This document shows positions 9,173 through 40,041 of a stretch of DNA of 64,000 nt, piece after piece; position 1 is the first letter of the stretch, and each line of letters starts with the position of its first letter. The position numbers and the translations under genes were made by a program. The DNA comes from Nitrospinales bacterium (lineage in GTDB: Bacteria > Nitrospinota > Nitrospinia > Nitrospinales > VA-1): the NCBI GenBank assembly GCA_965262115.1, contig OZ253496.1:1216001-1280000 (forward strand), written 5' to 3'. The notes below the pieces were generated by a model. It had not been told where the DNA came from, did no database searches, and saw only the letters and a program-made list of their open reading frames with translations.

Positions 9173-9327
9173 TCGATCAAAAATTTTCCTTTACACCCAA
9201 ATATAAAAAATACTCCCCCTCTGCCTGTAACGCACAAGGAAAGCTTAAAATGGTAACGGTCTTTATATATCACTAATAATGAGGAATGAATTTCTTTAAA
9301 AAAGAGCGGTTCGTAAAGCGGGGCCTG

Positions 9328-10782
9328 CTAAACCATGTCCTTCTTTTTGATTTTTTCTATCTCTTCCCGGATCACCTTGCGGGCAATTTCCGGAGTGACC
9401 TCTCTCACCACCTCACGGATGGTTTTTAAAATCACATCAGACAATCCGGAAACCTCTTTTTCCAGCGAAGTGCCCAACGATCTTTTCAATACCTGCTTAA
9501 CCTCTTCGGCAATGGCTTGAGTGAAGCGGTCATCCTCGGAATCATACTGCCAATTTCTCGAAGGAAAATTGCGCGGATCCAAATCCCGGTCCTGATCGGA
9601 AAATCCGGGAATAGCATCCAGATTTTCTTTTATGTCTTCTGGAGTTGCAGGGCGTTTGCCCACCTCAGAAAACGCACCCGGCGCTATATGCTTTAAAAGG
9701 TCTTCCGGCTCCGGAACAATGCCTCCCAGCGATGATAATGCAGGGGGCTTCTCCTCACGAGTGGCCGAATCTGGCCTGCTCCCCATGGCAAGTTCCTTGA
9801 ACGCAGAATCCAATTCATCCATATTGTCCATTCTGCGTTTGCCCACTTCGGCAAAGATCTCCGGCCCATCTGTATAGCCCAGATCTTCCGGTTCATCCGC
9901 ACCGGACTCCGCAAAAGGAAAAGCCTCGGCCTCTTCTGCGGCTGGATCGGGAGACTGAACAGACTCTTCAAGCTCTTCAACACCACGGATCATTTGATCC
10001 ATAATGTCATCATCATTCTCGGATTGCAGGGTGGGCACTTGCAGTTCTTTGTCTGGTGCAAGAGGATCATCCAGAAAATCAGAGAGCTCCATCGGTTCCA
10101 TCAAACCTTCTCCGGACAAATCCAAAGCCCGATCATCCGCCGGCGACTCCACAGACTCAGGAAGTGCCAGTTTTTCATCCACCAACGCGGGAACTTTATC
10201 TTCGAGCGATTCCCCTTCATCCACCAAATCTGAAATTTCCGTTCCATCTATCGAAAGTTTTTCAACCGAATCCAATAACTCCTCAAGACTGGGTTCCTCT
10301 TGCGATTCCGGCACTTTCAGGTTGCTTAAAATTTCTGCAGCCTCCTCTGTTTCTTCCACCGGCTGTCCGACGATTTCCGAGTCGGAAAGCAACGCGGCGT
10401 CTTCATCGCCGGATGAACCTTCCAGCAGACTTTTGACCATGGACACAATATCGTCCGACTTGAATGGTTTCGAGATATGGTTATCCGCACCGCAAGCCTG
10501 GTAGCGCTGTTCATCAAAATCTTCAAAGTCGCTGGCCAGCAGCAGAACTTTGATGCCCCTCGTTTCCGGAGCTTCTTTAATTTTCGCGCTCAACTCAAAA
10601 CCATCCAACCCCGGCATACCAACATCGGCCAAAACAATATCGGGATTAAATTCCGCAATTCGATCGAAAGCCTCCTGGCCATTGCTAATGCCCTCAACCT
10701 CCATGTCCTCATTTTCAAAAGCCATGGAAACAATTTTTTGGATGGTGATGCTATCGTCAGCAACTAGAAGTCTGGATGCCAT
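9328..10782 (-). CDS. Response regulator: receiver, long acidic linker and RomR-like C-terminal helix
   Basis: LLVADDS...DVGMP...KPF receiver; ~300-aa acidic linker; IREVVREVTPEIARKVIREEIEKI tail; directly upstream of valS. Confidence 0.85.
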   Translation of the reverse strand: MASRLLVADDSITIQKIVSMAFENEDMEVEGISNGQEAFDRIAEFNPDIVLADVGMPGLDGFELSAKIKEAPETRGIKVLLLASDFEDFDEQRYQACGADNHISKPFKSDDIVSMVKSLLEGSSGDEDAALLSDSEIVGQPVEETEEAAEILSNLKVPESQEEPSLEELLDSVEKLSIDGTEISDLVDEGESLEDKVPALVDEKLALPESVESPADDRALDLSGEGLMEPMELSDFLDDPLAPDKELQVPTLQSENDDDIMDQMIRGVEELEESVQSPDPAAEEAEAFPFAESGADEPEDLGYTDGPEIFAEVGKRRMDNMDELDSAFKELAMGSRPDSATREEKPPALSSLGGIVPEPEDLLKHIAPGAFSEVGKRPATPEDIKENLDAIPGFSDQDRDLDPRNFPSRNWQYDSEDDRFTQAIAEEVKQVLKRSLGTSLEKEVSGLSDVILKTIREVVREVTPEIARKVIREEIEKIKKKDMV

Positions 10783-10865
10783 GAAACTCAACCCTTCGGG
10801 ATTTGGAAAAGAACTTCGGATGGGACCGGCGGCTCACTCCCGCCCACTAGCGAGCCCACTCCCGT

Positions 10866-11056
10866 GGGAGGGAATATAGCAAGAACATTTAGGCCGAGAT
10901 AACTCTTTCTTGCCAAATAAGGCTATTGCTCACTGGATCCAGCGTCACGCTGGCACCGAGTGGCTACTCGCCGCAGGGGCAACTGGCAAAGCTCGTTAAG
11001 CCGAGACAACTCTTTCTTGCCAAATAAGGCTATTGCACACTGGCCCCACGCCTAGC
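10866..11056. repeat. Two tandem copies of repeat family B (44-bp near-identical core at 10893-10936 and 11000-11043)
   Basis: GCCGAGA(T/C)AACTCTTTCTTGCCAAATAAGGCTATTGC(T/A)CACTGG twice; inverted homolog at ~47856-47935. Confidence 0.9.
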
Positions 11057-11239
11057 GGGGAAAACCATTCAAACTCAACCAGTTGAGTATACCATAAAAT
11101 TTCTGACCCTGAAAAAATTTAGGATCTGCCCTCATTTAGACCCTGAAATTATCGATAAGTTTTAGATAGAGTGTGTCCGAACTCTATGTTTTAATAGAGA
11201 TAATATTTTAAGGATCAGATAGTTGGAGGTTTTCAGGCT

Positions 11240-13003
11240 TTGATTCGTTTGCTGCGGGTTTCCCATTCCATAAAAAAACTTGTACCGCGATGCGGGGGCA
11301 CCCTGGTTTTGCTCGGCGCCTTGTTGACCGTATTCCCTTCCAGTGCATTAGCTCTTTATATTCAAGTTGATGGAGTCGCTGATATCAAGTCCAACTTCAG
11401 CGAAGGATGTTCGTCCATCACCGATATTGCCAATCAGGCGGAACGCCAGAAAATAGATGTGGTCTTGTTTGGGGACTTTGCCCGCAATTCCATTGAATTC
11501 GGAATCAAACCGTTTGAAAGGATTTTTAAAAATATCACCCATGGGTCTTCGGTGCTCGACCGGGGAGTGGGGGGGTATTTATCAGAAATCAAGGATAACG
11601 ACCGCCAGTTTGAACGCACTTTGTTGATTCCCGGAGTGGAAACTATCCCCTTTTATTTCTGGACCGGAAGCAACTACGATAAAAACCTTACGGCCCATAA
11701 CTGGGACAAACATCTGCTGGTTTTCGGAATGGATTCCGCTGAAGATTACGAGCAGTTGCCCTTGCCCAACAGTAATTTCTCCAAAAAATATACCCATGAG
11801 CTTCTCAATAACTTCATAGTTATCGGGTTCATCTTTATGGTGATGGTCGGGGCCGTCTACAAAGGTCTTTTTCGCAAAATCACAGTGCCACTCATGTTGC
11901 TCTTCGCCCTGCTGACCTTGAACAACCATCCCTTTCAAAGTTCTCCTTTTGATCCTTATAATGGAGATCAGGGCATGGAGCCTTATCAAAATTTAATAGA
12001 TTTTGCCACCTCCAAAGGCGCGTTGGTTTTCTGGAATCATATGGAAACCGCTTCCGGTATCAGCCAGAAAGGCACTACCGTTCTGGAAACCCTGCCCTAC
12101 CCGGATGATCTGTTAAAAACACAAAACTATACCGGGTTCCAGGCCGTGGGTGACGAACCGATCGGTCAAACCGATCCGGGCCAGCAATGGGATCAGGTGC
12201 TCATGGAATACCTGAATGGAAATCGGGAACAACCGGTTTGGGGTTTTGGCAGTAATGATTTTCTTTGCGAAAATCAAGAGGGAGATGGCCTGGGATCCGT
12301 GCGCACCATTTTTCTAGTGCGGGAAAGAAACAGCGACACCGTACTTGATGCGATGAAAAAGGGAAGAATGTACGCCGTCCGCCAGGCCGATGCCAACCGG
12401 CTCTCGCTCGACGAGTTTGTCGTCGAAGACCAGAACGACAACCAGGTCACGATGGGAGAGGAACTGGTTGCAACCGACTTCCCCGCCATCAATTTGAAAC
12501 TTCGCTCTGTAAAGGGAGGAAACAAGACCGCCCAAATTCAGATCATCCGCAATGGGGTTATCGTTAAAGAAGAAACCGTTTCCCTGCCCTCTGAATTGAC
12601 TTGGAGGGATGTCGGCATAGACCGAAAAGAACCCGTTTATTATCGAGTCATGGCAACGGTCTCCCCGCAAGACCATCTGGTTTCCAATCCTATTTTTGTA
12701 AAGTTTGCAGATAATATAGGGGTGGAGATCGCTTCGGCCCCAACATCCGCGCCTGCTCCCGCACCTCCGGCAAAACTCCTGACGGTCATGCTTGATGGAG
12801 TGGAAATGAAAAAAGGGCCGGGAGAGATTTTCCCCAACATCACCAAACTCCGCAAAGGTCAGGAAGTCAGTTTCGTGAGAAGAACCAATATCGAGCTCAA
12901 CCACAGGAACTGGCTGGTGGTCAAGTATATGAACCGCTCCGGCTACATCTGGGAAGGCGTTCTCAAATGGTCCGGCGACCAGCATGACGCTGGACTCAAT
13001 TAG
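11240..13003 (+). CDS. Exported/membrane PHP-like domain protein with C-terminal SH3b-like domain
   Basis: Signal-like N-terminus; PHP-like pattern (D..SEG, IPGVE, WNH, GSND); two internal TMs; Pro/Ala linker; MKKGPG...WLVVK...GYI. Confidence 0.7.
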   Translation: MIRLLRVSHSIKKLVPRCGGTLVLLGALLTVFPSSALALYIQVDGVADIKSNFSEGCSSITDIANQAERQKIDVVLFGDFARNSIEFGIKPFERIFKNITHGSSVLDRGVGGYLSEIKDNDRQFERTLLIPGVETIPFYFWTGSNYDKNLTAHNWDKHLLVFGMDSAEDYEQLPLPNSNFSKKYTHELLNNFIVIGFIFMVMVGAVYKGLFRKITVPLMLLFALLTLNNHPFQSSPFDPYNGDQGMEPYQNLIDFATSKGALVFWNHMETASGISQKGTTVLETLPYPDDLLKTQNYTGFQAVGDEPIGQTDPGQQWDQVLMEYLNGNREQPVWGFGSNDFLCENQEGDGLGSVRTIFLVRERNSDTVLDAMKKGRMYAVRQADANRLSLDEFVVEDQNDNQVTMGEELVATDFPAINLKLRSVKGGNKTAQIQIIRNGVIVKEETVSLPSELTWRDVGIDRKEPVYYRVMATVSPQDHLVSNPIFVKFADNIGVEIASAPTSAPAPAPPAKLLTVMLDGVEMKKGPGEIFPNITKLRKGQEVSFVRRTNIELNHRNWLVVKYMNRSGYIWEGVLKWSGDQHDAGLN

Positions 13004-13237: not shown

Positions 13238-14405
13238 ATGAACTTCCAACTAATCGACTCTGAGTGGGACGACTTATTTAGAAGATCTCTGACTAAAAAC
13301 CATTCTAAGCTTAGAATTATTTGTCCTTTTATCAAAAAGAGTGTCGCTGAATGGCTTTTAACATTTGGGAAACCCCAGGTTCTTCAGATAATCACTCGCT
13401 TCAATCTTAGGGATTTTTGTGGTGGCGTCAGTGATGTATCGGCCCTCAGGTTGTTATTGGAAAATGGCGCGGAGATTCGGGGAGTCCGTAATCTTCACGC
13501 GAAGGTTTATCTCTTCGATAAGGACAGGGTAATTGTTACATCTGCGAACTTAACTAATGCCGCTTTAAGGAAAAATCATGAGTTTGGTTTTGTTTCTGAT
13601 GACTCAAAAATCCATCATACCTGTATGAAATATTTCCAAAATCTATGGAAACGAGCTGGTTCTGACTTATCCATAGATCGTTTGGCGGAATGGGAAAGCA
13701 AGTTGAATAGTGTTGTCATCGCTGGTTCGCGGCCTTCCTTATCGGGCAGTTTGCCTGATGAAGGTGCCGATGCAGGTGTGCCTGCGCCCCCTTTTGTTGC
13801 CCCCTCATTAGTAGAAGAAGCTTCGCAGGCATTCGTAAAATTCTTTGGTACTAGTGCTACACGATCTCTACGAACGACACTCATTTTTGATGAAGTTAAG
13901 AGATCAGGCTCTCATTGGGCATGCACTTACCCCCTGGGAAAGCGTCCCAGGCAAATCGCGGATGGTGACGTCCTCTTTATGGGAAGGTTGGTGAAAGAGC
14001 CAGATGACATTATTATATATGGTCGGGCAATAGGCATACGCCACCAAGAGGGGCGTGATGATGCAACATCTGATGACATATTATATAGACCCTTTAAGAA
14101 GAAATACTCCCATTATAAGAGTTCATCACGCTGAATTTATGGCAGGCGAACTAGAAAATGGTGTGTCGCTCAACAGATTAATGCAGGAACTCCAAGATTA
14201 TTCATTTGCATCGACGAAAAGGAACTCTGAAGCGGGAAAAGGCAATACCAATCCCCGTAGTGCGTATTTACAGCAGGCAGGGGTAAAGTTATCTGACGAG
14301 GGGCACAACTGGCTGAAAAAAGAGTTGGAAATTGTATTCGAGAATTACGGAATGCTGGGGCGAAAAGAACTTGAGAAGTTAGACTGGCCCGAGGTGCCTA
14401 AATGA
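13238..14405 (+). pseudogene. Phospholipase D-superfamily (HKD) nuclease, restriction-endonuclease-like, frameshifted near 14117
   Basis: LHAKVYLFD and TSANLT...NHEFG motifs; reading continues in a second frame (IRVHHAEF...WPEVPK). Confidence 0.85.
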
Positions 14406-20843: not shown

Positions 20844-21674
20844 TTAAAAAGTAAATCGATATTTTTCAAATAATTCGAGCGTTACAACTTCTTGCCCTTC
20901 TTTAGAGATCTCTTGTTCAATACGCTTCACCGCCATATTACGTATAAAAGGGATAGGAATGCGGGAAACCTTTTTCAATGCATCGTCCTCCCATTTCAGG
21001 GAAAATTCCATCGGCGCTTCCTTATCCTGACCGATCTGCTCATCGCGCTTGAGGTCCTCTTCGGTCACTTCCATTCCCATTGCCTCTTTAGCCGATGCAG
21101 GCATGATACTGGTGAACACCTCATCAATGATAGAAGGGGTGATCATCTTATCTCCCCGCTGGCGGGCGCGGCCCTCAATGGTCTGTTTAGCCATGCCCAG
21201 AACAAAGGGAGGCACCTTCTCCATTTTCTCCAACGCTTCTTTGCTCCAAGGCATGCCCTGAGGCTCGGCGACTTCCATATAGTTTTTGAATTTTTCAACA
21301 ATTTCGTCTTTTTTCTCGGTACGCATAGAAAGAAAATCTTCGATTTCCTCGATCACCTCCACCTTGCGCGGACTTTGCCGCATTTTTTCCTTCGCCACTT
21401 CGAAGGCATCCATCGTCAGCTCCTCGAAACCAAATCCCTTGACCCTTTTGGACACCAACATCATGGACTCATTACGAATTTCGGTCAGGTAATCAGAGGT
21501 CACTATTTTAAAACCCCTTTTAACGCACCGCTGAACCATCAGCTTGCGGATGCCCGGACGTACAAATTCCGGAGCGTGTTTCACCCTCTCCCACGCATCT
21601 TCAGACCACTCAACGCCATTTTCCCTGGCATAAGGGTGATCGACGTCAGCGATTTTTATTTCTTGCGTTCCCAT
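20844..21674 (-). CDS. PCP-reductase-family (PCP_red repeat) protein
   Basis: Three W(S/E)xxAxxxxxxxPxF(V/I)...(V/I)T repeats. Confidence 0.85.
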   Translation of the reverse strand: MGTQEIKIADVDHPYARENGVEWSEDAWERVKHAPEFVRPGIRKLMVQRCVKRGFKIVTSDYLTEIRNESMMLVSKRVKGFGFEELTMDAFEVAKEKMRQSPRKVEVIEEIEDFLSMRTEKKDEIVEKFKNYMEVAEPQGMPWSKEALEKMEKVPPFVLGMAKQTIEGRARQRGDKMITPSIIDEVFTSIMPASAKEAMGMEVTEEDLKRDEQIGQDKEAPMEFSLKWEDDALKKVSRIPIPFIRNMAVKRIEQEISKEGQEVVTLELFEKYRFTF

Positions 21675-21930
21675 AAGCCCCACCAAAAATTGAATCTATT
21701 ATATTTATTGGGTCATGACCCTATTTATTTTTTAGATGTAGGACAAGGCTTCAGCTTCGCTGGCTCGTAAACCTGAAGGTTTACCCTCGCATAAAACTTA
21801 TCCTGAATCCACAAGGAGGCACCCCCATTCTACAATTTCTCAAATTCTTTATCAATCTTATAGTACCTCTGACAGCTACAAGATCCGGTAAACATGGAAC
21901 CGTTTTCAAACTACCAAAACAGTTTAATTT

Positions 21931-21939
21931 TGTTATAAT
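21931..21939 (+). promoter_or_regulatory. Extended -10 sigma70-type promoter candidate
   Basis: TGTTATAAT about 45 nt upstream of the 21983 ATG. Confidence 0.5.
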
Positions 21940-21982
21940 CCTTCCACACTTACAATCCTGTATTTTTTAAGCCTTATCCTTT

Positions 21983-23896
21983 ATGCCCCAGCCGAACTGG
22001 AAATTCCGGATGATGACCAGAGGAGAAATGAACGCCGACCCTATCGAAAGCGAGTTTTTCTCCACCGAGCACTTGGACAGCGTAGCAGATGCCTTGGTTC
22101 GCGAATCCATCCAAAATTCTCTCGATGCCGGGTTACCGGAACAGACGGTTCGGGTAGTCTTTCGTCTGTTTACGGAAAATTCAGATATAAACGGGAACAT
22201 GGTCCATTACCTTGAGGGCCTCCATTCGCATTTAAATGCCGAGCAAAATGGATTGATCAAAGCCCCCTCCATTCAGGCTCCCAAAACCTTTTTAACTATT
22301 GAGGATTACGGCACACGGGGCCTCGAAGGGGACCCCGCCCAAGACGATGATTTTCAGTCCGCCAACAGACTCGATAAAAACGATTTTTTCTATTTTTGGC
22401 GCAATACAGGGCGATCCAAAAAAAGTGGTACGGAGCGGGGTCGCTGGGGTTTAGGGAAAACAGTATTTCAGGCCACTTCCCGAATCAATTCATTTTTTGG
22501 GATGACAGTCAGACAAAGTGATGGATGCCCTTTGTTAATGGGCCATTCCGTTTTAAAGACCCATTTGGTGGAAGGAAAGAAATATTCACCCTATGGATGG
22601 TACGGAATTTTTAGTGAAGACTTTGCTTTGCCGATTGAAGACAAACTCTATCTCAAAAAGTTTTCATCCCAGTTTCAGATCAAGAGATTAGGCAAGGCAG
22701 GCCTTTCGATCATTATCCCTTATCCAGATCCGTCTGTGAAAATTGAAACCATCCTTTCCTCTGTGCTGCTTCATTATTTTTTTCCGATTCTATCCAAAGG
22801 CTTGGTGGTTGAGCTTTATGAGGGCGAAAAACATCTCATAATCGATGGTCAAAAAGTAGATGAACTTTTACAATATGTAGACTTCTCAAAATCCCGACTA
22901 ACCAAAGAGAATTTTCAACACTTGTTCAATTTTACCCGTTGGATACACTCTCTCTTGCCTACTGCCTTCGTAAAGCTCAATCTGCCACCCACACAAGGGG
23001 CTCCCAAATGGAACGAGACTCTTTTTGACCCCGGGGTTTTATCAAAATTACAGGAACAATTTGATCGCAGGGAACGGCTGGCTATTAGAGTTCCTTTGAA
23101 AGTCAAACCCAAAGATAAGACCACGGAAGAAACGTATTTTGATATTTTTATGGAGCGTGATGACCGGCTGGATAAAGTGGAAGATCATTTTATACGGGAG
23201 GGTATCACCATTTCAGGGGTTAGCACTCTCAAACAAAAAGGAATTCGGGTAATTGTTTCAGTCAACGACAAGATCTTGTCCGCGTTTTTGGGGGATTCAG
23301 AAAATCCCGCGCATACCGAATGGCAGGAACGTTCTCCAAAACTCAAGAATCAATACAAACATGGAGTTTCTTGCCTGCGATTCGTCAAAAATAGCCCCAG
23401 AGAAATTGTTCGTTTTTTGAATAAACCCGCTTTGGGCATTGATAAAAAACTTTTGTAAAATTTTTTTTCTGTCGAACCGCCTTCAAATAAGGGCCATGAA
23501 GGAACTTCCGGCGGCAACCAAAAAGATCCGCAAGGTGAACCCCCTGTTCCTCTGGAACTGATAGGTCAAAGCAAGGAGTTTCGGCTTCTTCGTAAGCAAG
23601 GAGGGTTTAGAATCTTATCAAACCCAGAGACCGTTCCTTTACCCAGGGGAATACTCGTTACCGTAGCTTATGAGACAAGGAGGCAAAATCCATTTTCTAA
23701 ATATAGCCTCTTTGATTTCGAGATGGATAAAACCCCAATCAAAATACAAAACATGGGAGCAAACATATGTGCCAAAAGTAAAAATAAGCTCCTTATCCAA
23801 ATAGAAAAGCCGGGGTTTTTTGTAGAAGTCACCGGCTTTGATTTGCATAGAGATTTAAGAGTAAAAGTTGAGCCCGTCGGATCAAGAAATGATTAG
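21983..23896 (+). pseudogene. GHKL/MORC-like ATPase-fold protein (637 codons) with one in-frame TAA at 23456-23458
   Basis: LVRESIQNSLDA (N box), IEDYGTRGLEG (G1), GRWGLGK (G2); the same frame stays open for 145 more codons to TAG 23894-23896, overlapping the next ATG. Confidence 0.8.
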
Positions 23897-24668
23897 AAAA
23901 CTAAATTTTACAGGCAGAAAGAAAATCCCGCGAAGCAGGGTACCCGTGACCTTATTAAACGTGGATAAGCATCCCCAATCTTTCGATGTTCAGTTTGATT
24001 TGTCCGACCTGAATCTACCGCCGAAAGCTACGGTTTTTGTGGAAACATATAAACGGACTTCCTACATGCGTTTCCGATTCGGAACGATTGGCAAATGCAC
24101 GATTCCACCAGATCGTAACCTTGTAGATATCGAACCGAAAGTTACCCCTCTGTTCCGCGTAAAGGTGGTAGACGAAACTTCTCAACAAGGCCGGATTATT
24201 GCTCTTGCGGACAAAATTTTACCGAGAGGGATTGACCAAGGTACGCGAGAAAAAATCAGTCTGTTGCATGTCGAGTTTTCGGAGGATTTGGAAGGGCAAG
24301 TCTGGAGGTTGGATTTGAGCGGAGAATGGCCTGTTATTCAAGTGAATAGTCAAATTGATTTGATTAAAGAAATTGCCAAGTCGGATAGGGCTTTTATTGC
24401 TTTAGTTTATCCAGAAGTTGTCCGGCAAATTTTAAATCATATTATTGAGTCGGATGAAACTGACCCTGAATTAGACGAAGAGGATTGGCCTGGCATGTGG
24501 TTAAATTTTGTTGGTCGTATGCCAGGGGTAGGGTCTCCACCCTTCGGCAGAATAGCGTCCATTAAAAATGACCAAAAGGAATGGATAGAATCGGCTGTGA
24601 TGGCTTTTAGCTACAAATGGCAACTTTTAGATCAATATCAAGAACTACACAAGCGAGAGCAAGAGTGA
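23889..24668 (+). CDS. Hypothetical protein (MIRKLNFTGRKKI...), second gene of the operon
   Basis: ATG overlaps the restored stop of the upstream gene; 259 aa. Confidence 0.85.
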   Translation: MIRKLNFTGRKKIPRSRVPVTLLNVDKHPQSFDVQFDLSDLNLPPKATVFVETYKRTSYMRFRFGTIGKCTIPPDRNLVDIEPKVTPLFRVKVVDETSQQGRIIALADKILPRGIDQGTREKISLLHVEFSEDLEGQVWRLDLSGEWPVIQVNSQIDLIKEIAKSDRAFIALVYPEVVRQILNHIIESDETDPELDEEDWPGMWLNFVGRMPGVGSPPFGRIASIKNDQKEWIESAVMAFSYKWQLLDQYQELHKREQE

Positions 24669-25387
24669 TGGCTCAGGTACGCAGGCTGAATCCCCAAGGA
24701 ATCGAGCGGTTCAGAGAATATTTGCAAGCCCTCAAGGAGAACCCTGGCGTGGCACCGCCGGTTGGGATTTTGGACGATCCTGATTATTCTGATGTGTTGC
24801 AAGATCAAGTAGAAATTGTAAAAGTGGAATTCAAAAATCGGACTCACATGGTCAAGTATTTGTCTACGGCTTTAGAAAACTTGAACACCCAATTAGGAGC
24901 AGAAAATCAAGGATTATGGAGTTGGTTATCCCTTTTTTATTTTGATCAGGTTTGCCCGGAGGATTTGAGCGGATGCCGAAAAGCTGGCATGGATTATCGA
25001 CATATTCTGGAGAAGGGATACCGACACCGACACCGACACCGACATCTCTTAGCGGGTCCATACATAACCTATCAAATGTATAGAGAAAAGGCTCGATTGC
25101 TCTTGCATGGTCTACTTCATCAGGAAAATAAAATTCATCATGAACTTGCGGCAAGGCAGGAGTTTATTACAAATCGAAGCATTATAGAAGCAACCGACAC
25201 CCTTTATTTTGATAAGGATAAAAATAAACCCAAAGCGGGGATTCTATCGAAAACCAGAGCGGACTCATTATTACGGTTTGTTGACGTAATACAGCAATTA
25301 GAATTAAATTATGATCTTTACAGCATGGAGGCTCAGGAAATCATTTCCCTTTTGCCGAATGAATTTAACGGGTCGGGGACTGTTTGA
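24668..25387 (+). CDS. Hypothetical protein (GLWSWLSLFYFDQVCP...RHLLAGPY), third gene of the operon
   Basis: TGATG coupling; 239 aa; contains (ACCGAC)4. Confidence 0.85.
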   Translation: MAQVRRLNPQGIERFREYLQALKENPGVAPPVGILDDPDYSDVLQDQVEIVKVEFKNRTHMVKYLSTALENLNTQLGAENQGLWSWLSLFYFDQVCPEDLSGCRKAGMDYRHILEKGYRHRHRHRHLLAGPYITYQMYREKARLLLHGLLHQENKIHHELAARQEFITNRSIIEATDTLYFDKDKNKPKAGILSKTRADSLLRFVDVIQQLELNYDLYSMEAQEIISLLPNEFNGSGTV

Positions 25388-25545
25388 TTATCAACCCGGC
25401 AATTAAAACCACAATTTTTCCAAAACCCGTTTGAATGCGAATCCAGGCTTTAGCCGGTTGCCAGACAGTACCAATGGTTTTGAATGCAAAAGAATTCCCC
25501 TTAGCTTGTTGCTACGGAGTTTCCTCTAATTTTCCCCTTGTTAAT

Positions 25546-25650
25546 GAGGCCTTTGCATACAGTTAGATCCCATTGACCAAGGCGGATATCCTTCTGCCGA
25601 AAGCTCACCAAGATGACAATACAAATGTCCCTAGGGTGTCATTCCGCTAT
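25546..25650. repeat. Degraded family A MITE (left end only)
   Basis: GAGGCCTTTGCATA preceded by CCCCTTGTTAAT; internal ATGACA...TGTCAT remnants. Confidence 0.55.
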
Positions 25651-25704
25651 GAAACAGACGATCTACTACTACCCACCAACATGGTAAAACGTGTTTAATT
25701 GCCT

Positions 25705-28700
25705 ATGCAACGTTCTCCTGTCATTTATTTTTTATTTTTCATTTCCGGCATCACCGCGCTGACTTATGAAATCGTCTGGACCCGGATGCTGACTCTGGTG
25801 TTCGGGCATACCGTGTTTTCTGTATCGGTAGTGCTGGCAGCATTCATGGCAGGTTTAGGTCTGGGCAGTTACCTGTTCGGCTATGCCGTCGACCGGTTAC
25901 CGGAAACAAACGGTTCAGGAAAAGCCGCTCTCCTTCTCTATGGCTGGATAGAAATCCTGATTTTTGCCAGTGGGGCCCTGCTCTCTCTCTTATTCGCCAA
26001 TTTTTCGGGAATCTATGCCTCCCTGCACAGTTTCATCCCCGAATCGATTCCCTTGCAGAATTTGATAAAAATGTTGTTCGCCTTTGGGATGATGCTGATC
26101 CCCACCACCTTCATGGGAGCAACCCTGCCGATCATCAGTAAATACTGCGTTACCGATGACAGCCGGATGGGAACTCAAGTGAGCCTGCTCTATGCGCTCA
26201 ACACCCTGGGCGCCGCAGTCGGTTGTCTGATGACCGGATTCTTCCTGATGGGCACGTTCGGAGTTCTGCAAACCGTTCTTCTGGCAGCAGGGGCAAACCT
26301 GCTGATCGGGATCAGCGCACTGAGAATTTATCTGGAAACCGTTCCCGGCGCCGACTGGAAGTTTCGACTCCCGCCCTTACGGGTACCGCGCATCGACTTG
26401 AATGCGGACCAGAAATTCTGGATGGGCATCAGCTTTATCTGCGGATTCACGGCTTTGGCCTATGAAGTGTTATGGACCCGGCTACTGGTGTTCAGTATCG
26501 CCAGCACCGTCTATTCCTTCAGCATGATGCTCACGGTCTTTCTTCTGGGAATCTTTTTGGGAAGCCTGTTGTTGATCCCTCTGGCATCGCGGATCCATAA
26601 CATCCGCACCGCCTTGTTAATCCTGCAAGCCAGCGCCGGTCTTTACGCGATCGGCTCCCTGTACGGACTCGAGTCCATCCTTTCCGCTCCCTGGAACGGC
26701 TACAACTTGACCGATCCGGCCACAGCGTTTTTGCGCTACTTCAAAGATTCCGCCGGACTCATGCTGATACCCACCCTGCTGTTGGGCATGTGTTTTCCCC
26801 TGTTGATAAAAATAGTTTCCGGCGGACATCAAAACGTCGGCAAGGCCACCGGCCAGATCTATTCGGCAAATACACTGGGGGCGATTTTCGGATCGTTATG
26901 CGCGGGCTTCCTGTTGCTGCCAAATCTGGGAAGCCAGGTCAGCCTGACCCTGATCGCCACCCTGAACATGCTGACCACGGTTTTACTGTTCCGCACCGGA
27001 AACTATATGACCCCGGCAGTGCGCAAGGGGTTGACCGTCGTGTTCACGGCACTGATCCTCTTTGTCAACATGGCTATTCCCCACGATTTATTAAATCCGT
27101 TTTTCATGCGAGACAGCGCCGGCAAACGCAACATTAAAAAGCTGATGTATTTCGAGGAGGGCCTCTCTGATACTGTGGCCGTGTTCAGAGACGATTATGG
27201 CGTTCTCGACCCGACTGCAAAGCGGTTGATCACCAACGGCATTTCCATGTCTGCCTCCAACCTGATCGCAACACGCTACATGAAACTGTTCGCCCATGTT
27301 CCCATCCTGTTGGTGGATCAACCCGATGACGTGCTGGTGGTCTGCTTTGGAACCGGGCAAACCACAGGCGCGGCGGCCATTCACCCGCGCGTCAAATCCG
27401 TCGACAGCCTGGAACTGTCTACCAGTGTCATCAACGCGGGAAAAATGTTTGCCGACCAGAACCATCAGGCGCTTGACAACCCCAAAATAAATTTTGTCAT
27501 TCAGGATGGCAGGAATCACCTTCTGACCACCCACAAACATTACGACGTCATCACTTCCGAGCCACCGCCTCCCCGCACCGCGTTCACCGTAAACCTGTAT
27601 ACCCGGGAGTATTATGAGCTCCAGAAAAGTCGCCTGAAACCAGGAGGAATCGCCGCGCAATGGATTCCCCTCCACAGTCAGGGAGAAGAAGAAGTGGATA
27701 TGCACTTCAGAACCTTCCAATCCGTTTTCCCCTACACCATGGGCTGGCTTTCGGTGGCGAACGAAATTCTTATTATCGGGTCTGATCAACCGATCCGAAT
27801 TGATTTTGAAAAACTTAAAGTCCGCCTGGAAGAACCCGAAATTAAAAAAGCGCTGGCTGATATTGAAATCCCCAATATCTTTTCCTTTCTCAGCAATATC
27901 TGGCTGCTGGATGAACAAATTCAGGCTTTAGGCAAGGGTCACCCCCTTATCACCGACAACCATCCCGCTATTGAGTTTTATCTCGACCTGGGGAATGTGA
28001 TCGACGTGTCCGGAAGAGAGAAATATGTATTCAACCGGGCTTCTTTCGATCAAATTGCCAACCATGTGGAGAATCTTTCCGCGACAGACCGTATGACTCT
28101 GAGGACCTATTACCAGGCCATGGATCTTTATCAACGCGGTGTCATGTACAGCAACCGGGGACAACTGCTTAAAGCATTGAGCTTGATAGAAGACAACAAT
28201 CTCGTTCGCTACCATCTGCAGGCGGGCAAAGATCAGATGGCCCGGCTGATCAAACAGGTGGAGCAGAACCCTGAAGTGATCGAGAACCTGCTCAACCTGG
28301 GCCACAGCTATTATCAAGTCGGCGAATATGAGAAAAGTGCTGAAATCCTAAAAATGGTTTTGGCAAAACATCCGAAATTGAGTTTCGCCCACCTGTACAT
28401 GGGGTACAACCTTTTGGAACTGGGGAAAAAAGAAGAAGCCCTGAACTATTTCAAGAGCACGGCAAAAAATGACCCGCGCCAAATGGGAACCGTGATGCGG
28501 GAAATTGGACTGGTCAACCTGCTTCAGCAAGCGGAAAAAAAATCAGACGACAAGAGTCTCCAGCGATCGGTGGCCGAATTTTACAATATCAAAAATGAAT
28601 ATCTGAAATCTCTGGAATACTCCCTCAAATCTCTTGAGGAAGACCCTATGAATCTCAAAGTTTTGCAAAGCATCGTTTTCAGTTACCGAGGTCTGGGCGA

Positions 28701-28917
28701 AGCCAAAGAAGTGCTTATGTATGGCAACCGCTACAGCCTGATAGACCCCGATGAAATTCACCTGCAGTTCATCATGGGAGAAATTTATACCAAGCTCCTT
28801 AAATGCCAGAAAGCCATCCCACTACTGAAAAATGTTTTGAAAAAAGACGACACCTACCGCAACGCCCAAAACCTTTTGGACTCCTGTGAAAATTCCACAG
28901 AAACACCAGATATTTAG
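25705..28917 (+). CDS. Fused MFS-like membrane domain / spermidine-synthase-like SAM methyltransferase fold / TPR protein
   Basis: Duplicated SGxxALxYEvxWxR...YxxNTLG membrane repeats; VVCFGTGQT, DGRNHL, YDVITSEPP; C-terminal TPRs. Confidence 0.9.
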   Translation: MQRSPVIYFLFFISGITALTYEIVWTRMLTLVFGHTVFSVSVVLAAFMAGLGLGSYLFGYAVDRLPETNGSGKAALLLYGWIEILIFASGALLSLLFANFSGIYASLHSFIPESIPLQNLIKMLFAFGMMLIPTTFMGATLPIISKYCVTDDSRMGTQVSLLYALNTLGAAVGCLMTGFFLMGTFGVLQTVLLAAGANLLIGISALRIYLETVPGADWKFRLPPLRVPRIDLNADQKFWMGISFICGFTALAYEVLWTRLLVFSIASTVYSFSMMLTVFLLGIFLGSLLLIPLASRIHNIRTALLILQASAGLYAIGSLYGLESILSAPWNGYNLTDPATAFLRYFKDSAGLMLIPTLLLGMCFPLLIKIVSGGHQNVGKATGQIYSANTLGAIFGSLCAGFLLLPNLGSQVSLTLIATLNMLTTVLLFRTGNYMTPAVRKGLTVVFTALILFVNMAIPHDLLNPFFMRDSAGKRNIKKLMYFEEGLSDTVAVFRDDYGVLDPTAKRLITNGISMSASNLIATRYMKLFAHVPILLVDQPDDVLVVCFGTGQTTGAAAIHPRVKSVDSLELSTSVINAGKMFADQNHQALDNPKINFVIQDGRNHLLTTHKHYDVITSEPPPPRTAFTVNLYTREYYELQKSRLKPGGIAAQWIPLHSQGEEEVDMHFRTFQSVFPYTMGWLSVANEILIIGSDQPIRIDFEKLKVRLEEPEIKKALADIEIPNIFSFLSNIWLLDEQIQALGKGHPLITDNHPAIEFYLDLGNVIDVSGREKYVFNRASFDQIANHVENLSATDRMTLRTYYQAMDLYQRGVMYSNRGQLLKALSLIEDNNLVRYHLQAGKDQMARLIKQVEQNPEVIENLLNLGHSYYQVGEYEKSAEILKMVLAKHPKLSFAHLYMGYNLLELGKKEEALNYFKSTAKNDPRQMGTVMREIGLVNLLQQAEKKSDDKSLQRSVAEFYNIKNEYLKSLEYSLKSLEEDPMNLKVLQSIVFSYRGLGEAKEVLMYGNRYSLIDPDEIHLQFIMGEIYTKLLKCQKAIPLLKNVLKKDDTYRNAQNLLDSCENSTETPDI

Positions 28918-30834: not shown

Positions 30835-32094
30835 ATGACTGCTTTTCGTTTTATTCACTGTTCCGACCTCCATATTGACAGCCCTTTCAAGGGCCTGGCA
30901 TCTCAGGTGCCGTCTCTCACGGAACGACTGCGGGAATCCACCTTCCGATCTTTCCACAATATCGTGAAACTGGCCGTGGAAGAAAAGGTGGATGCTGTTC
31001 TGATCGCCGGGGATATTTTTGATGGCGCCGATCGAAGCTTGCAAGCACAATTAAAATTTCGTCGCGGCCTGCTGGAACTGTCCGAGAAAGGCATTCCTTC
31101 TTTTATTGTACATGGCAATCACGACCCTTCTAACAGTTGGTCCCACATGTTGGATTGGCCGGAGAGCACCACTATTTTCCCCGGGAATAAAGTGGAGCGC
31201 ATCCCGGTAATCCGGGAAGGTGAGACGCTGGCCTGGATTTACGGAATCAGCTATCCTCAGAGAGAAGTGAACGAAAACCTGGCGTTAAAGTTCAAGAAAG
31301 ATCAGGAGCAGGGTTTTGCAGTGGGGCTCCTGCACGCGAATGTCGGGCAACATCCCGGACATGATAATTACGCCCCCTGTAGTTTGCAGGATTTAATATC
31401 CAGCGATTTTGATTACTGGGCTCTGGGCCATATCCATGAATTCAAAATTCTGCGCGAGAATAAACCGTGTATCGTTTATTCCGGCAACACCCAGGCCCGG
31501 CATCTCAAGGAAACCGGCCCTAAAGGCTGTTGTCTCGTCACCCTGAATTCCAGCGCGTCCGCCAATATACGGTTCGTCGCCACCGATGTGGTGAGCTACC
31601 GTTCCGCCAAAGTGGATGTCAGCAACGCCTCCAGTATTAATGAGGTATTGCAAGCCATTCAGTCGCAGGTGGAAGATCTCGCCAAAGAATCGTTGACCCG
31701 CGAAGGCCTGGTAGTACGACTGGTTTTAACAGGACGAACTGCGGTCCACAATGAATTGCAAAATCCCGGGGCCACCAAAGCTCTGGCCGAAGAGATCCAT
31801 GCATTTTTTGAAGGACATTCGCCCTGGATTCTGGTGGACCTTTCCACTCAAACCGCAGGCACTTATGACATTGACTCTCTGAAGGACGGCAAGGATTTTA
31901 TCGCCGACCTTTTAAATCTTTGCGAAGACGACCAGGACAAACAACTGCAAAGCAAAATTCAGGAAGCCATGAAACCTGTATTCGAATCCTGGGCAGGAAG
32001 AAAATATTTGGAAGACGGTGAAAATATTCAGACCATCACTCTGAAAGCTCGCAATCTGGCGCTCGATCAACTGGTCAACCGCGAGAACCCATAG
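30835..32094 (+). CDS. Mre11/SbcD-like metallophosphoesterase nuclease (YhaO family)
   Basis: DLHID, AGDIFD, GNHD, LLH, DYWALGHIH. Confidence 0.95.
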   Translation: MTAFRFIHCSDLHIDSPFKGLASQVPSLTERLRESTFRSFHNIVKLAVEEKVDAVLIAGDIFDGADRSLQAQLKFRRGLLELSEKGIPSFIVHGNHDPSNSWSHMLDWPESTTIFPGNKVERIPVIREGETLAWIYGISYPQREVNENLALKFKKDQEQGFAVGLLHANVGQHPGHDNYAPCSLQDLISSDFDYWALGHIHEFKILRENKPCIVYSGNTQARHLKETGPKGCCLVTLNSSASANIRFVATDVVSYRSAKVDVSNASSINEVLQAIQSQVEDLAKESLTREGLVVRLVLTGRTAVHNELQNPGATKALAEEIHAFFEGHSPWILVDLSTQTAGTYDIDSLKDGKDFIADLLNLCEDDQDKQLQSKIQEAMKPVFESWAGRKYLEDGENIQTITLKARNLALDQLVNRENP

Positions 32095-32102
32095 GAAACG
32101 CC

Positions 32103-34792
32103 ATGCAATTACGCGAAATTCATATTGACGGCTTCGGAATATTCGCCAATAAGCGGATCACCGGGCTGGCTCCCGGAATCAATATCATTTATGGCAAAAA
32201 TGAATTTGGCAAGACCACCCTGCTCGAATTCATCCGGCGAATCCTGTTCGGGTTTCCCACCAAAAGGGATAACACCAACCTCTATACTTCCGTGCAGGGA
32301 GGGTCGCTGGGCGGTAGTTTGAAGGTGATACTGCAAAACGGCGAGGGTCTGATCATTTCAAGGAGCCCCGGCACGCATGGAGGAATGGTGAGGATTTCTA
32401 CACCCGGCGAAGTCCTGCAGGGGCAATCCGCTTTGAATCACCTTCTCGGAAACGCCTCCAAGGATATTTATAGAAATATCTACGCTTTCACCATTGATGA
32501 ATTGCATGACTTCAACACTCTCAACAGCGATGAGGTCAAAAACCGCATCTATGGTGCTGGACTGGGTCTCGGCAATGTTTCGCTGAAAGAAATAGAAAAA
32601 GAACTGGAAACTCACTGCAAGCAGATTTTTAAATCGCGTGCCCCTCGCAAATGGGAGACCTGCTGGAAAAAATAAAAACCAACGAGCAGGAAATTCTGCT
32701 GACCCAGAAAAACCTGACTCTGTTTGACGAGTTGCAGGAAAAACTCGGCAGATTGCTGACAGAAAAACTCAGCGTGCAGAATTCCCTGGAAGACCTGGAA
32801 TCGGGCAAAAGAACCCTGGAAACCCAGGTCCGGCTTTATGAAGACACCATCCAGTTCCTGGAAGCCAAAAATAAACTGGCAACACTGGAAGACCTCTCGC
32901 AGTTCCCTGAAAATGGATTGAAGACTTTTGAGTCCATGAAGCAGGAAAAGAAAAACCTGATCCTGCGTATTGAAGAAGAACAGTCTGCCCTGCAAACGCT
33001 GAAAAATAACCGCGATGCCCTGACCGTAAACCATGACCTGCTTGGACAGGAAGAAAATGTTCATCGACTGCAACAGTCCACCCAATCCGTTCTATCTGCC
33101 CTGCAGGACCTGGACAGAGTGCAGTTCGAACGGGAAAACATGGACATGGATATTGCCGAAGAAATCAAATCCATCGACCGGGACTGGGATGAAAAAACCG
33201 TAATGGCTTTTGATTTAACAGAAGCGGAAAAAGGCCAGATCGACAGTTTTTATGACAGCTTTGAGAGTTTGAGAAAAGACCGGGACTTGTATCAGGACCA
33301 TCTGGAGAGCCACCGCAGGATAAAAGCTGAAAAAATGTCAGAAGGCTGGAACATTCCCGATTGGTTGAAATTATTTTATTACGGATTCACCGCAACCGGC
33401 GCATTGGGAGTGATTCTTAGTGGGTACTTTATGAACATCCCTCTTTTAGCCAGCGCCCTGCTTCTTATTGCCGGAGGTATCTTTCTTTTCAAGATGACCA
33501 CAAAAAGCACGGACGATTTCACCAAGGAAGACCTTACCGAGAAAAATCTTGCCCACCAATGGGAACAAAAAGAAAAAGAATTGAACGATAAGTTTGGTGA
33601 ATGGCGAGAGTGGCTGAAGGAACGGAGCCTGGATCCCAGCATTGCCCCCATCACCACAAAAAACATCGCCAAAACCGCCCGACAGGTCAAAACCATGCTC
33701 GCTCAGCGGGCAAGGCTCGATGAACGTATCCTGCAAATGAAAACCCTCTGCAAGGAAACCCGGGAAAGTGTTCTCTCACTCGAACCCATGGTTGAAAACG
33801 TTTCATTGAAAAATAACCTCCCTCTAAATATCGAGATCATCGGCCATGCTTTTGATGAGAGTAGAGCCAACCGGGGAAAAAGCAACCTGCTGGAAAACCA
33901 ATACCAGAATCAGGCCGACAAACTCACGCATCTTGAAAATCAACTGGAAAACATTTCCAACGACCTGGCACAGTTTATTCGTTCATCGGGAGCCGCAGAT
34001 TCTATGGATTTTCTGCGCAAGCAATCCATTCTGGATGTTCGAAAATCCCTGCAAGAAAAAATCGCGCAGAAACGCGGAATCATTCAATCCAATATCGGGC
34101 TGGGCTCGCATTTCGATAAATTTATTAAAGCCATACAAACCGCTCCGCTTGAAGAAATCAAACAAAAGCTAAGCCGTCTTCAGGTTGAGCTGAAAGAACT
34201 GCACGGCGGCCGCGAACAATTGTTACAGAACATCGGCGAAACCCGCAACGAAATTGAAAAATTGGCCTCCAACAACGACTTGATCGCAAAACAAACGGAA
34301 CTGGAGTTTCTGAAACAACAACTGCAATCCCTAGGGCAAGAGTGGGCCGCTTACCGTGGGGCTCTGGTTCTCCTTGATGCCGCCAAGCAGGAATATGAAA
34401 AAACCCGGCAACCCGAGGTGATCCGCTCAGCGGAAAACCTGTTCACTCAAATCACCGGTTACCGTCGCATTATCAAAACCATCAATCAGGATGAAGTGCT
34501 GATAGAAAACGACCAGCATCAGAGAAAAGGAGTGCTGGAAATGAGCCGGGGAACCCGCGAACAACTCTATCTGGCCATGCGGTTCGGCCTGATTAATGAA
34601 TATGAAACCCGCTCCGAACCGCTCCCTGCGGTGATGGACGATATCTTAGTGAACTTTGATGATGAACGCAATGAACGCATCATAAAAATTCTCAGCAAAT
34701 TCAGTAAACAGCGACAGGTCCTGGCCCTCACCTGCCACAAACGCTCCCTCAAAGCCTACAAAGACATCGGCGCTACTACTATTACGGTCTAA
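32103..34792 (+). pseudogene. YhaN-family SMC/Rad50-like ATPase, frameshifted near 32640-32645
   Basis: Walker A GKNEFGKTT in the first ORF; coiled coils, TM hairpin, MSRGTREQLYLAMRF and MDDILVNFD in the second ORF. Confidence 0.9.
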
Positions 34793-35696
34793 CCAGGCCA
34801 ACCACGCCGACAAGCCGCAGGGAACGTGTTGGAGAACAAGCAAAAAACAAATGCAGGTGTGGCTGAAGGGAAACCGCATTTTCTTTCCTCTGGGAGGTAA
34901 AAGTGTTCCGCGGCTAAAGCGTTATTTGAAAGAGGTGCAACAAGGCATAGTTCCTTTGACCATCTGGACTTATGATGAGGTAGGACATACGGATGGCACC
35001 CGTAAACTCCTGAAGGAGATTTTCAGCGACCAGCAGTTACCCTTCGACAACCCGAAGGCGTTGGGATTGTTGCAGAGAATATTAACCATAGCGGCGGATA
35101 AAAACGCTATCATTCTCGATTCCTTCGCCGGTTCCGGCACCACTGCCCACGCCGTCCTCGCACTGAATAAAGAAGACGGCGGCAACCGCAGGTTTATTCT
35201 GGTGGAGTGTGAGGATTACGCCAGCAAAATCACCGCCGAGCGTGTTCGCCGCGTGATAAATGGTGTGCCAAAAGCAAAAGATGAAAACCTGAAAAATGGG
35301 CTTGGTGGCAGTTTTGCCTATTGCACCTTGGGCGAGGAAATGAGCATTGAAAAAATGCTCACGGGCAAGAACCTGCCGGACTACGAAACACTGGCCCGCC
35401 ATCTGGTCTATATGGCAACCGGGCAATCGCCGGACAAACTCCGCAAAGCCAAAGGAAAAGACGGGTTTTTCCATGAAACCAAAGACCGACTGTTCTACCT
35501 CATCTATGAACCGAACCTTGATTTTCTGCGTAGCATGGGTTCCGCCCTGAACAGCATCCGCGCCGAACGCATTGCCAAACAAGTAAAGACAAAAAATAAA
35601 ACCGCAGTGGTGTTCGCCACCCACAAGTTTATCGGGCAGAAAGAATTGACGGAAATGGGGATCGTATTTTGCGGCTTGCCGTATGGTACATTATGA
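34793..35696 (+). pseudogene. mod: Type III R-M Mod (DNA methyltransferase), 5'-truncated
   Basis: FDNPK and ILDSFAGSGTTAHAV...NRRFILVE present; DPPY catalytic half absent. Confidence 0.88.
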
Positions 35697-39492: not shown

Positions 39493-40041
39493 ATGGGATA
39501 CAGGTTATTCGCCAACATGTTTTCATACCATGCTTGTATTGTTTGTGGGCGAGAAATTAAAGCTCATTACACCAGATGTTACCGGTGCAATGAGGCTCGA
39601 AAACGTGGTGGATGGCATAACCCAGAAGATCATTCCGTTTTTGAAAATTCTGATGCACAGCATAACCGCCCATTCTATGTTTACATTCTTGAAACCGATT
39701 ACGGACATTATGTCGGGCACACAGGAAATATAGAAGCCCGGATTCGCACACATTTAGCAAACGGTTCACCTCAGACTGCTAGCGGCTATCTAACGAAAGT
39801 ATGGCAATCAAGCCCATTTAAAACACGCGAAGCCGCCGCCCATTATGAGGCTGTGCTTAAGTGCTGGCGCGACAAAAGAGACTATCAGTTCGAAGAAAAA
39901 ACCAAAATGAAACCGAAGCCATTTAAAAACCCAAACATTGTCCGACACGAAGCTGCTGACGGCTGGGTAGCAAGTCTATTCACAATTCTTATCACATGTA
40001 TTTTACTGTTTCTATTTCTGGCATTTATTTTTAAGCTATGA
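39493..40041 (+). CDS. GIY-YIG nuclease with N-terminal CxxC-CxxC finger and C-terminal TM helix
   Basis: CIVC...CYRC; YVYILE...YVGHTGNIEARIRTH...AAHYE; hydrophobic C-terminus. Confidence 0.85.
   Translation: MGYRLFANMFSYHACIVCGREIKAHYTRCYRCNEARKRGGWHNPEDHSVFENSDAQHNRPFYVYILETDYGHYVGHTGNIEARIRTHLANGSPQTASGYLTKVWQSSPFKTREAAAHYEAVLKCWRDKRDYQFEEKTKMKPKPFKNPNIVRHEAADGWVASLFTILITCILLFLFLAFIFKL

Follow-up and report, generated by a model that had tools for sequence, protein, structure and literature searches.

The paraMORC2 ATPases are known mainly from cyanobacteria and Gram-positive bacteria, where they occur in restriction-modification (R-M) neighborhoods with helicases, methylases and Vsr, and their hallmark is an ExxxH motif that is highly conserved and lies in the S5 domain's C-terminal portion, according to the accessible passages of Iyer 2008 (PMC2292703). 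In the accessible part of a 2026 preprint (bioRxiv 10.64898/2026.09.30.754977), the restriction role suggested in 2008 for prokaryotic MORC and paraMORC proteins is still a proposal. The PDCs of PADLOC are presented, in the accessible text of Payne et al. (bioRxiv 10.1101/2024.01.29.577857), as candidates defined by their position inside BREX, DISARM or type I R-M loci. The name M33 is absent from the main text of that preprint, whose supplementary tables may describe it; the main text of PMC12418389 holds no passage on M33, and a full-text literature search for PDC-M33 or DUF6339 found no paper. PADLOC represents PDC-M33 by models of 627 positions for A, 289 for B and 247-346 for C, the last of which matches genes annotated as DUF6339. 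Here we analyze three genes, A, B and C (21983..25387), in a 64,000-nt stretch of a Nitrospinales bacterium genome (contig OZ253496.1, positions 1,216,001 to 1,280,000; hereafter the window), which a preliminary description made from the letters alone had put forward as an undescribed three-gene defense system.

All three genes lie on the forward strand between two backbone genes. Gene A contains a premature in-frame TAA at codon 492 (23456-23458): its 5' part (21983..23458) encodes 491 aa, and the frame past the stop (23459..23896, 145 codons), which carries a Pro/Gly linker and a beta-rich C-terminal domain, runs on to a TAG at 23894-23896. Gene B (23889..24668) encodes a likely adaptor of 259 aa, and gene C (24668..25387) a candidate sensor or effector of 239 aa; these lengths, and the motifs LWSWLSLFYFD and RHLLAGPY in C, were as first described. 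The reading we favor, at a probability of about 0.45, is that the trio would work on its own, sensing foreign DNA with the aid of ATP and without recourse to a self-methylation mark, with A as the clamp, B as the adaptor and C as the sensor or effector.

A conserved trio and its kinship with PDC-M33

Genes A, B and C form a real conserved module. Homolog searches returned 1,789 proteins for A, 180 for B and 537 for C, and a C profile matched 1,864 representatives (clusters at 50% identity) at E 0.001. A search of species genomes with A found 36 loci, with A-B-C in order in 31, three cut by contig ends and two remnants (L035 and L036). The same order was present in all 50 metagenome loci with at least 1.3 kb upstream among the best 80 of 183 matches of a scan anchored on C; a scripted rule passed 48 of these, and the other two carry A and B and failed on overlapping envelopes alone. 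The three genes thus co-occur elsewhere. The named hosts are Nitrospinota, Nitrospirota, deltaproteobacteria and records assigned to Acidobacteriota, and the nearest named homologs are mostly from Nitrospinota metagenome-assembled genomes. At five loci (L051, L055, L056, L063 and L066), non-coding spacers of 150-300 nt uncouple B from C, and some of these contain palindromic repeat-like elements.

In a PADLOC run, A matched the named candidate PDC-M33A (E 3e-21, model positions 24-301 of 627), and B and C of the window matched neither PDC-M33B nor PDC-M33C. The same two models matched 0 of 120 B members and 0 of 144 C members at E 0.05. More distant A matches were found on plasmids, where A is followed by a gene of about 235-355 aa and then by a gene usually annotated as DUF6339; the genes of these trios, which we call canonical, match PDC-M33A, B and C to varying degrees, and trios of this sort are also carried by other genomes from the phylum of the window. 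Window C gave no match over the cut-off to DUF6339 (PF19866) in Pfam, two of 144 C members matched that family at E 0.004 or weaker, and one precomputed match (P0299) was not reproduced at E 0.01. C and the canonical DUF6339 proteins have mainly a tryptophan-bearing helix in common.

Profile-profile alignment (hhalign) against 14-15 canonical trios paired A with A (99.85%, E 1e-30), C with C (92.6%, E 5e-7, 178 columns) and B with B (59%, E 9e-5, 103 columns), while six off-diagonal controls all gave E > 0.1. The alignments link the three genes in order to the canonical trios, strongly for A, moderately for C and weakly for B, with B and C as remote relatives of the genes in second and third place. 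In a quick tree of 38 A proteins, which left out one partial canonical row, 23 clade rows fell on one branch with a Shimodaira-Hasegawa-like approximate likelihood ratio test value of 99, and a Rhizobium plasmid protein was sister to them. On this tree the trio belongs to a separate, well-supported clade, distantly related to PDC-M33. The word undescribed therefore needs narrowing: the clade is new to the PADLOC B and C models, but A hits PDC-M33A and B and C are remote PDC-M33 homologs, so that a named system is matched in part, and that system is itself a candidate only.

Two canonical loci have arrangements of their own. On a Halorussus plasmid (NZ_CP119808.1), two divergent A-B-DUF6339 trios surround one dcm gene. 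A conjugative dairy plasmid of Lactococcus (NZ_PP589888.1) carries a canonical trio at 7935-11560, between an AlwI-family nuclease and AbiG.

Protein features, insertion slot and probable decay

The names N-box, G1 and G2 are established for the motifs of GHKL ATPases. In A, an ExxxN N-box, a DxGxG-like G1 and a GxxGxG G2 are present in that order (E41/N45, D108, G153-G156-G158-K159), as the preliminary description had noted. Across 122 clade sequences E41/N45, D108-G113 and G153/G156/G158 never vary, and their conservation in 16 distant ones is at least 81%. An ExxxH motif follows at E440-H444, and both residues are kept in all 36 aligned A proteins (20 from the clade and 16 distant); by its position, this region would adopt an S5 fold. 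The idea that ExxxH might be the MutL switch loop was not supported by hhalign. A search of Protein Data Bank (PDB) sequences with the A profile found no match, Pfam and NCBIfam scans assigned no family to A, B or C, and in the ESM Atlas A falls in unnamed clusters and C had no usable match. A search of viral contigs with two patterns found no relative of A. The motifs suggest that A is likely a GHKL/paraMORC-type ATPase acting as an ATP-driven DNA clamp.

The model of B (predicted local distance difference test, pLDDT, 91) has an N-terminal Ig/FN3-like beta-sandwich (approximately residues 8-116) and an alpha/beta C-terminal part. The best fold comparison (VIA; Z 8.1, root-mean-square deviation, rmsd, 3.1, 98 residues aligned) points to a common arrangement and barely covered the C-terminal half. 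C is modeled as mostly helical (pLDDT 94); Foldseek found no match for it in PDB or BFVD at E 0.001, and its best VIA match had Z 4.2, rmsd 3.6 and 64 residues aligned, which is no proof of a new fold. Complex prediction with homologs of A and B (P0004 and P0131) scored 0.47 against 0.00 for the best control, in a band (up to 0.60) that holds 18 of 157 solved complexes and also both of the passing mismatches among 215; at least 70% of contacts agreed between runs and the partner pLDDT was at least 74. The prediction weakly suggests that B binds A.

The mechanism that we favor, the stand-alone sensor, would run as follows. On binding ATP, A would dimerize and clamp or loop DNA, as GHKL biology suggests (Iyer 2008 and general knowledge), and B would dock on A as an adaptor, which the complex model weakly predicts. 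In the weakest step, C would recognize some feature of invading DNA, be it a modified base, an end or an intermediate of replication, and would block or damage that DNA under the control of the ATP cycle of A. Six residues of C (R125-H126, R203, Q210, D216 and E232) show at least 95% conservation among 150 diverse members of the clade. A more specific version, which we consider unlikely, has these residues as the active site of C, a DNA-acting effector of undescribed fold that the MORC-like ATPase would switch on, giving self-sufficient immunity without a self-mark.

The C homologs P0418, P0375 and P0441 carry an extra N-terminal domain of 130 aa, or a C-terminal linker and zinc ribbon; the N-terminal extension of P0418 resembled a B3-type DNA-binding domain, a reading that was rejected, as neither Pfam nor PDB supported it. 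In window C, a run of CACCGA-type hexamers (25019-25042) encodes RHRHRHRH; sequencing runs X6-X9 are one 6-nt unit shorter there, so the window strain has an expansion at this point, beside the conserved RHLL motif.

The operon occupies a variable insertion slot (21710..25700) between backbone genes at 20844-21686 and 25699-28917. In 16 of 22 congeners this slot is empty, with only 100-300 bp between the flanking genes; one congener (G013) has an HNH endonuclease gene there (L190:378-1169, Pfam E 4.5e-8) in a gap of 1.3 kb, and the gap was unresolved in five. The slot takes variable, nuclease-like cargo. Strong A matches occur in 7 of 61 relatives, this genome included, and in one of the 22 congeners, at another site. 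From this patchy occurrence at unrelated sites, the trio appears as a mobile cassette.

Several features of the operon itself had also been described, and most of them stand. Its GC content is 43.1% against 46.8% for the genome, below about 90% of equal-size windows, and third-position GC is 0.41-0.44 in the trio against 0.51-0.62 in three backbone genes, so its AT-richness is real yet modest. A perfect extended -10 promoter-like element, TGTTATAAT, lies on the forward strand at 21931..21939, 43 nt 5' of gene A, and is a putative promoter; counting both strands, the 2.68-Mb genome has 84 instances of the pattern (0.03 per kb), a loose version was found 5' of 5 of 64 homologs, and a sigma-70 scan gave 11 sites against 6.9 +/- 2.6 in shuffles. 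Translational coupling holds in part: B and C are joined by TGATG at 24666-24670, but the 8-nt overlap of A and B (ATGATTAG, 23889-23896) exists only if the TAA at codon 492 is read through. The same applies to the Pro/Gly linker and beta-rich tail of A, which are encoded, but beyond the stop. The claim that the operon is flanked by repeat remnants did not stand, as no pair of direct repeats stood out around it and comparison of the flanks with the rest of the genome gave just two short, chance-level matches (34 and 25 nt, E approximately 0.005).

We next consider the stop codon. Full-length A homologs are 620-650 aa long, include the Pro/Gly linker and beta-rich C-terminal domain, and have Glu at the position of codon 492. 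The TAA is present in contigs of runs X1 (depth 3), X2 (depth 274) and X5 (depth 6.5), from three studies, and sequencing error was therefore ruled out as its cause; runs X1 and X2 may be the source of the window DNA. A homolog on a different contig (P0012) terminates at the same place. A recoded stop was also ruled out, given the Glu codon in homologs and in the strain of run X6, which is approximately 97% identical. X6 has GAA at codon 492, but close to the start of C one base is inserted after 24703; this insertion was also seen in X7, from the same sample, and in X9 on part of the depth. In run X8, two bases are inserted after 24628, close to the end of B (one contig, depth 5.4). Codon comparison of the window with X6, which covers 21555-24224, gave 11 synonymous and 11 non-synonymous differences in A before the stop (1,473 nt), and 7 and 18 after it (430 nt). 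Outgroups place derived changes on both lineages, and therefore the window and X6 copies both appear to be decaying. More widely, a split or truncated gene was found in 6 of 61 loci that span the whole trio, some of which may be assembly errors, and at L014 an extra gene, which we take to be transposase-like, is inserted within B. The window copy is very probably inactive, because the stop removes the conserved tail of A and breaks the coupling to B.

Repeated inactivation of this kind (6 of 61 loci, and three sister strains each with a different lesion) would fit a costly system, and could point to an abortive-infection switch in which a phage protein binds the Ig-like domain of B or the tail of A, and the ATP cycle of A frees C, a toxic effector with a new fold that would arrest the cell. 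The clade-invariant polar residues of C and the lack of need for a self-mark are consistent with this. However, the window strain has intact B and C with a truncated A, so full-length A would not be indispensable as an antidote, provided that the stop has no polar effect on B and C. In addition, trios linked to methylases are close kin, which indicates DNA as the substrate. We consider such a switch quite unlikely.

Methylases, neighborhoods and rival readings

The canonical trios often adjoin dcm and vsr, genes for restriction enzymes, or Abi or Shedu genes, so the suggestion that relatives sit beside a C5-cytosine methyltransferase and Vsr was borne out for these distant trios. In the clade, HMMs (hidden Markov models) built from annotated dcm and vsr genes detected dcm in one of 54 loci of at least 9 kb, the Rhizobium outlier, and vsr in none. 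Among 26 clade loci with at least 4 kb on each side, some of them near-duplicates, one had a DNA methylase within 4 kb, compared with 11 of 15 canonical loci. Five of the 26 had a methylase in the available flanks, all of adenine/N4 type, and 21 had none; the methylase seeds came partly from canonical loci and the set is not random, and most hits are also annotated or evident methylases. The typical paraMORC2 R-M neighborhood of methylase, Vsr and helicase, a matter of context rather than of sequence, is mostly absent from the clade. Because the whole clade is without dcm and vsr, the missing methylase is its normal state; the notion of a restriction module that had lost its methylase is not supported, and no nuclease domain was found. 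By these searches, what is new is a clade whose B and C escape the PADLOC models and which lives without a methylase. The outlying Rhizobium member (plasmid NZ_CP140867.1, 9902-13434) comes from a cultured strain, keeps ExxxH and has dcm 2.6 kb downstream.

Several results weigh against a stand-alone sensor. The host genome has two full-length C5 methylase matches unlinked to the trio, and a mark could come in trans from its C5 and N6/N4 methylases, which lie apart from the trio. Family scans recognized neither a nuclease domain nor any other effector domain in the three proteins, the conserved polar residues of C are not conserved in canonical DUF6339 proteins, the B alignment to canonical trios is weak, and when A was aligned to MutL by hhalign the N-box alone matched (E 0.004-0.017). 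PADLOC at 1e-6 matched 30 of 147 neighbors at 33 metagenome loci against 6 of 43 window genes, a control that is a single window, itself with defense remnants; by our judgement, convincing matches number approximately 11 among the neighbors (type I/III restriction enzymes, SNF2 helicases and other PDCs) and two among the window genes. Many clade loci in genomes lie among housekeeping genes (from 136 neighbors at 24 of the 36 loci), and a literature search found no experiment on any family member.

Part of this evidence suits an accessory motor for R-M, which would loop DNA or recruit nucleases encoded elsewhere, acting in trans with unlinked R-M genes; looping and nuclease recruitment have been proposed for paraMORCs (Iyer 2008, PMC2292703, in its accessible passages). 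The C5 methylases elsewhere in the host, the lack of a visible nuclease in the trio and the R-M genes beside canonical relatives all favor it, as do four clade loci (L013, L014, L016 and L061) next to type III or Eco57I-like/SNF2 clusters. The partners that a mobile cassette needs usually move with it, whereas 21 of the 26 well-flanked clade loci have no methylase match in the available flanks, and the partners, where present, vary between loci. On balance we find this motor doubtful.

The housekeeping neighbors, and the absence of enrichment over the window control, would suit a mobile GHKL complex that is chaperone-like or serves DNA repair or chromosome handling, with no part in defense. 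The accessible passages of Iyer 2008 (PMC2292703) allow that some paraMORCs were perhaps recruited for repair in non-R-M contexts. Against this stand the sporadic occurrence of the trio (7 of 61 relatives) at unrelated insertion sites, the slot shared with an HNH nuclease and the R-M linkage of relatives, and we regard a purely non-defensive role as improbable. Since no enrichment was shown, the grounds for our proposal of defense are kinship, patchy occurrence, the slot shared with a nuclease gene and the repeated inactivation.

Elsewhere in the window, a PLD-domain nuclease-like gene at 13238-14405 matches the PADLOC DrmC model (E 2e-84) in two frames that meet near 14055-14134, and is likely an isolated, broken defense gene. 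A C-terminal fragment of a type III methyltransferase (34851-35696, E 3e-87) abuts a metallophosphoesterase/SMC-like ATPase pair (30835-34792, labeled by eye), of which the SMC-like ATPase gene is in two frames near 32651-32675. Also present are a small gene for a GIY-YIG nuclease (39493-40041) and an IS30-like transposase (507-1427, labeled by eye).

Significance and comparison with known systems

Methylase-linked trios confound a test of the proposed restriction role, because any effect could stem from the adjoining R-M genes. A clade of 3.4 kb that moves on its own would offer a clean test of the role of the three-protein core, and, if the more specific version with C as a DNA-acting effector is true, a minimal, testable model of how MORC-type ATPases discriminate self from foreign DNA. 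As C is without a fold match, a structure of it would be a novelty. The copy in the window is likely dead and hence the wrong one for testing activity.

The Mza system of Gao reportedly joins a MutL-like ATPase with Z1, DUF4420 and AIPR. It resembles the present trio in placing a GHKL ATPase within a defense operon, and an MzaD-like gene and an AIPR gene lie 5' of two canonical trios; however, such genes are not conserved neighbors of the clade, and the Mza models matched none of A, B or C. Tiamat is likewise a case of a GHL ATPase serving anti-phage defense, but the accessible part of the preprint describes it as a GHL ATPase and DNase, in a clade apart from MORC and paraMORC and with nuclease activity of its own (bioRxiv 10.64898/2026.09.30.754977), and the PADLOC TmtA model for it matched none of A, B or C. 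With paraMORC2 the clade has in common the N-terminal GHKL motifs, an ExxxH late in the second domain and a mobile, sporadic distribution; it differs in being mostly without R-M partners and in its hosts, which are Nitrospinota, Nitrospirota, deltaproteobacteria and Acidobacteriota records. PDC-M33 also consists of three genes, arranged in the same order and similar in size. The window trio differs from it in belonging, by the A tree, to a separate clade, in having a C with conserved polar residues of its own and in being, the outlying Rhizobium locus excepted, without dcm and vsr neighbors.

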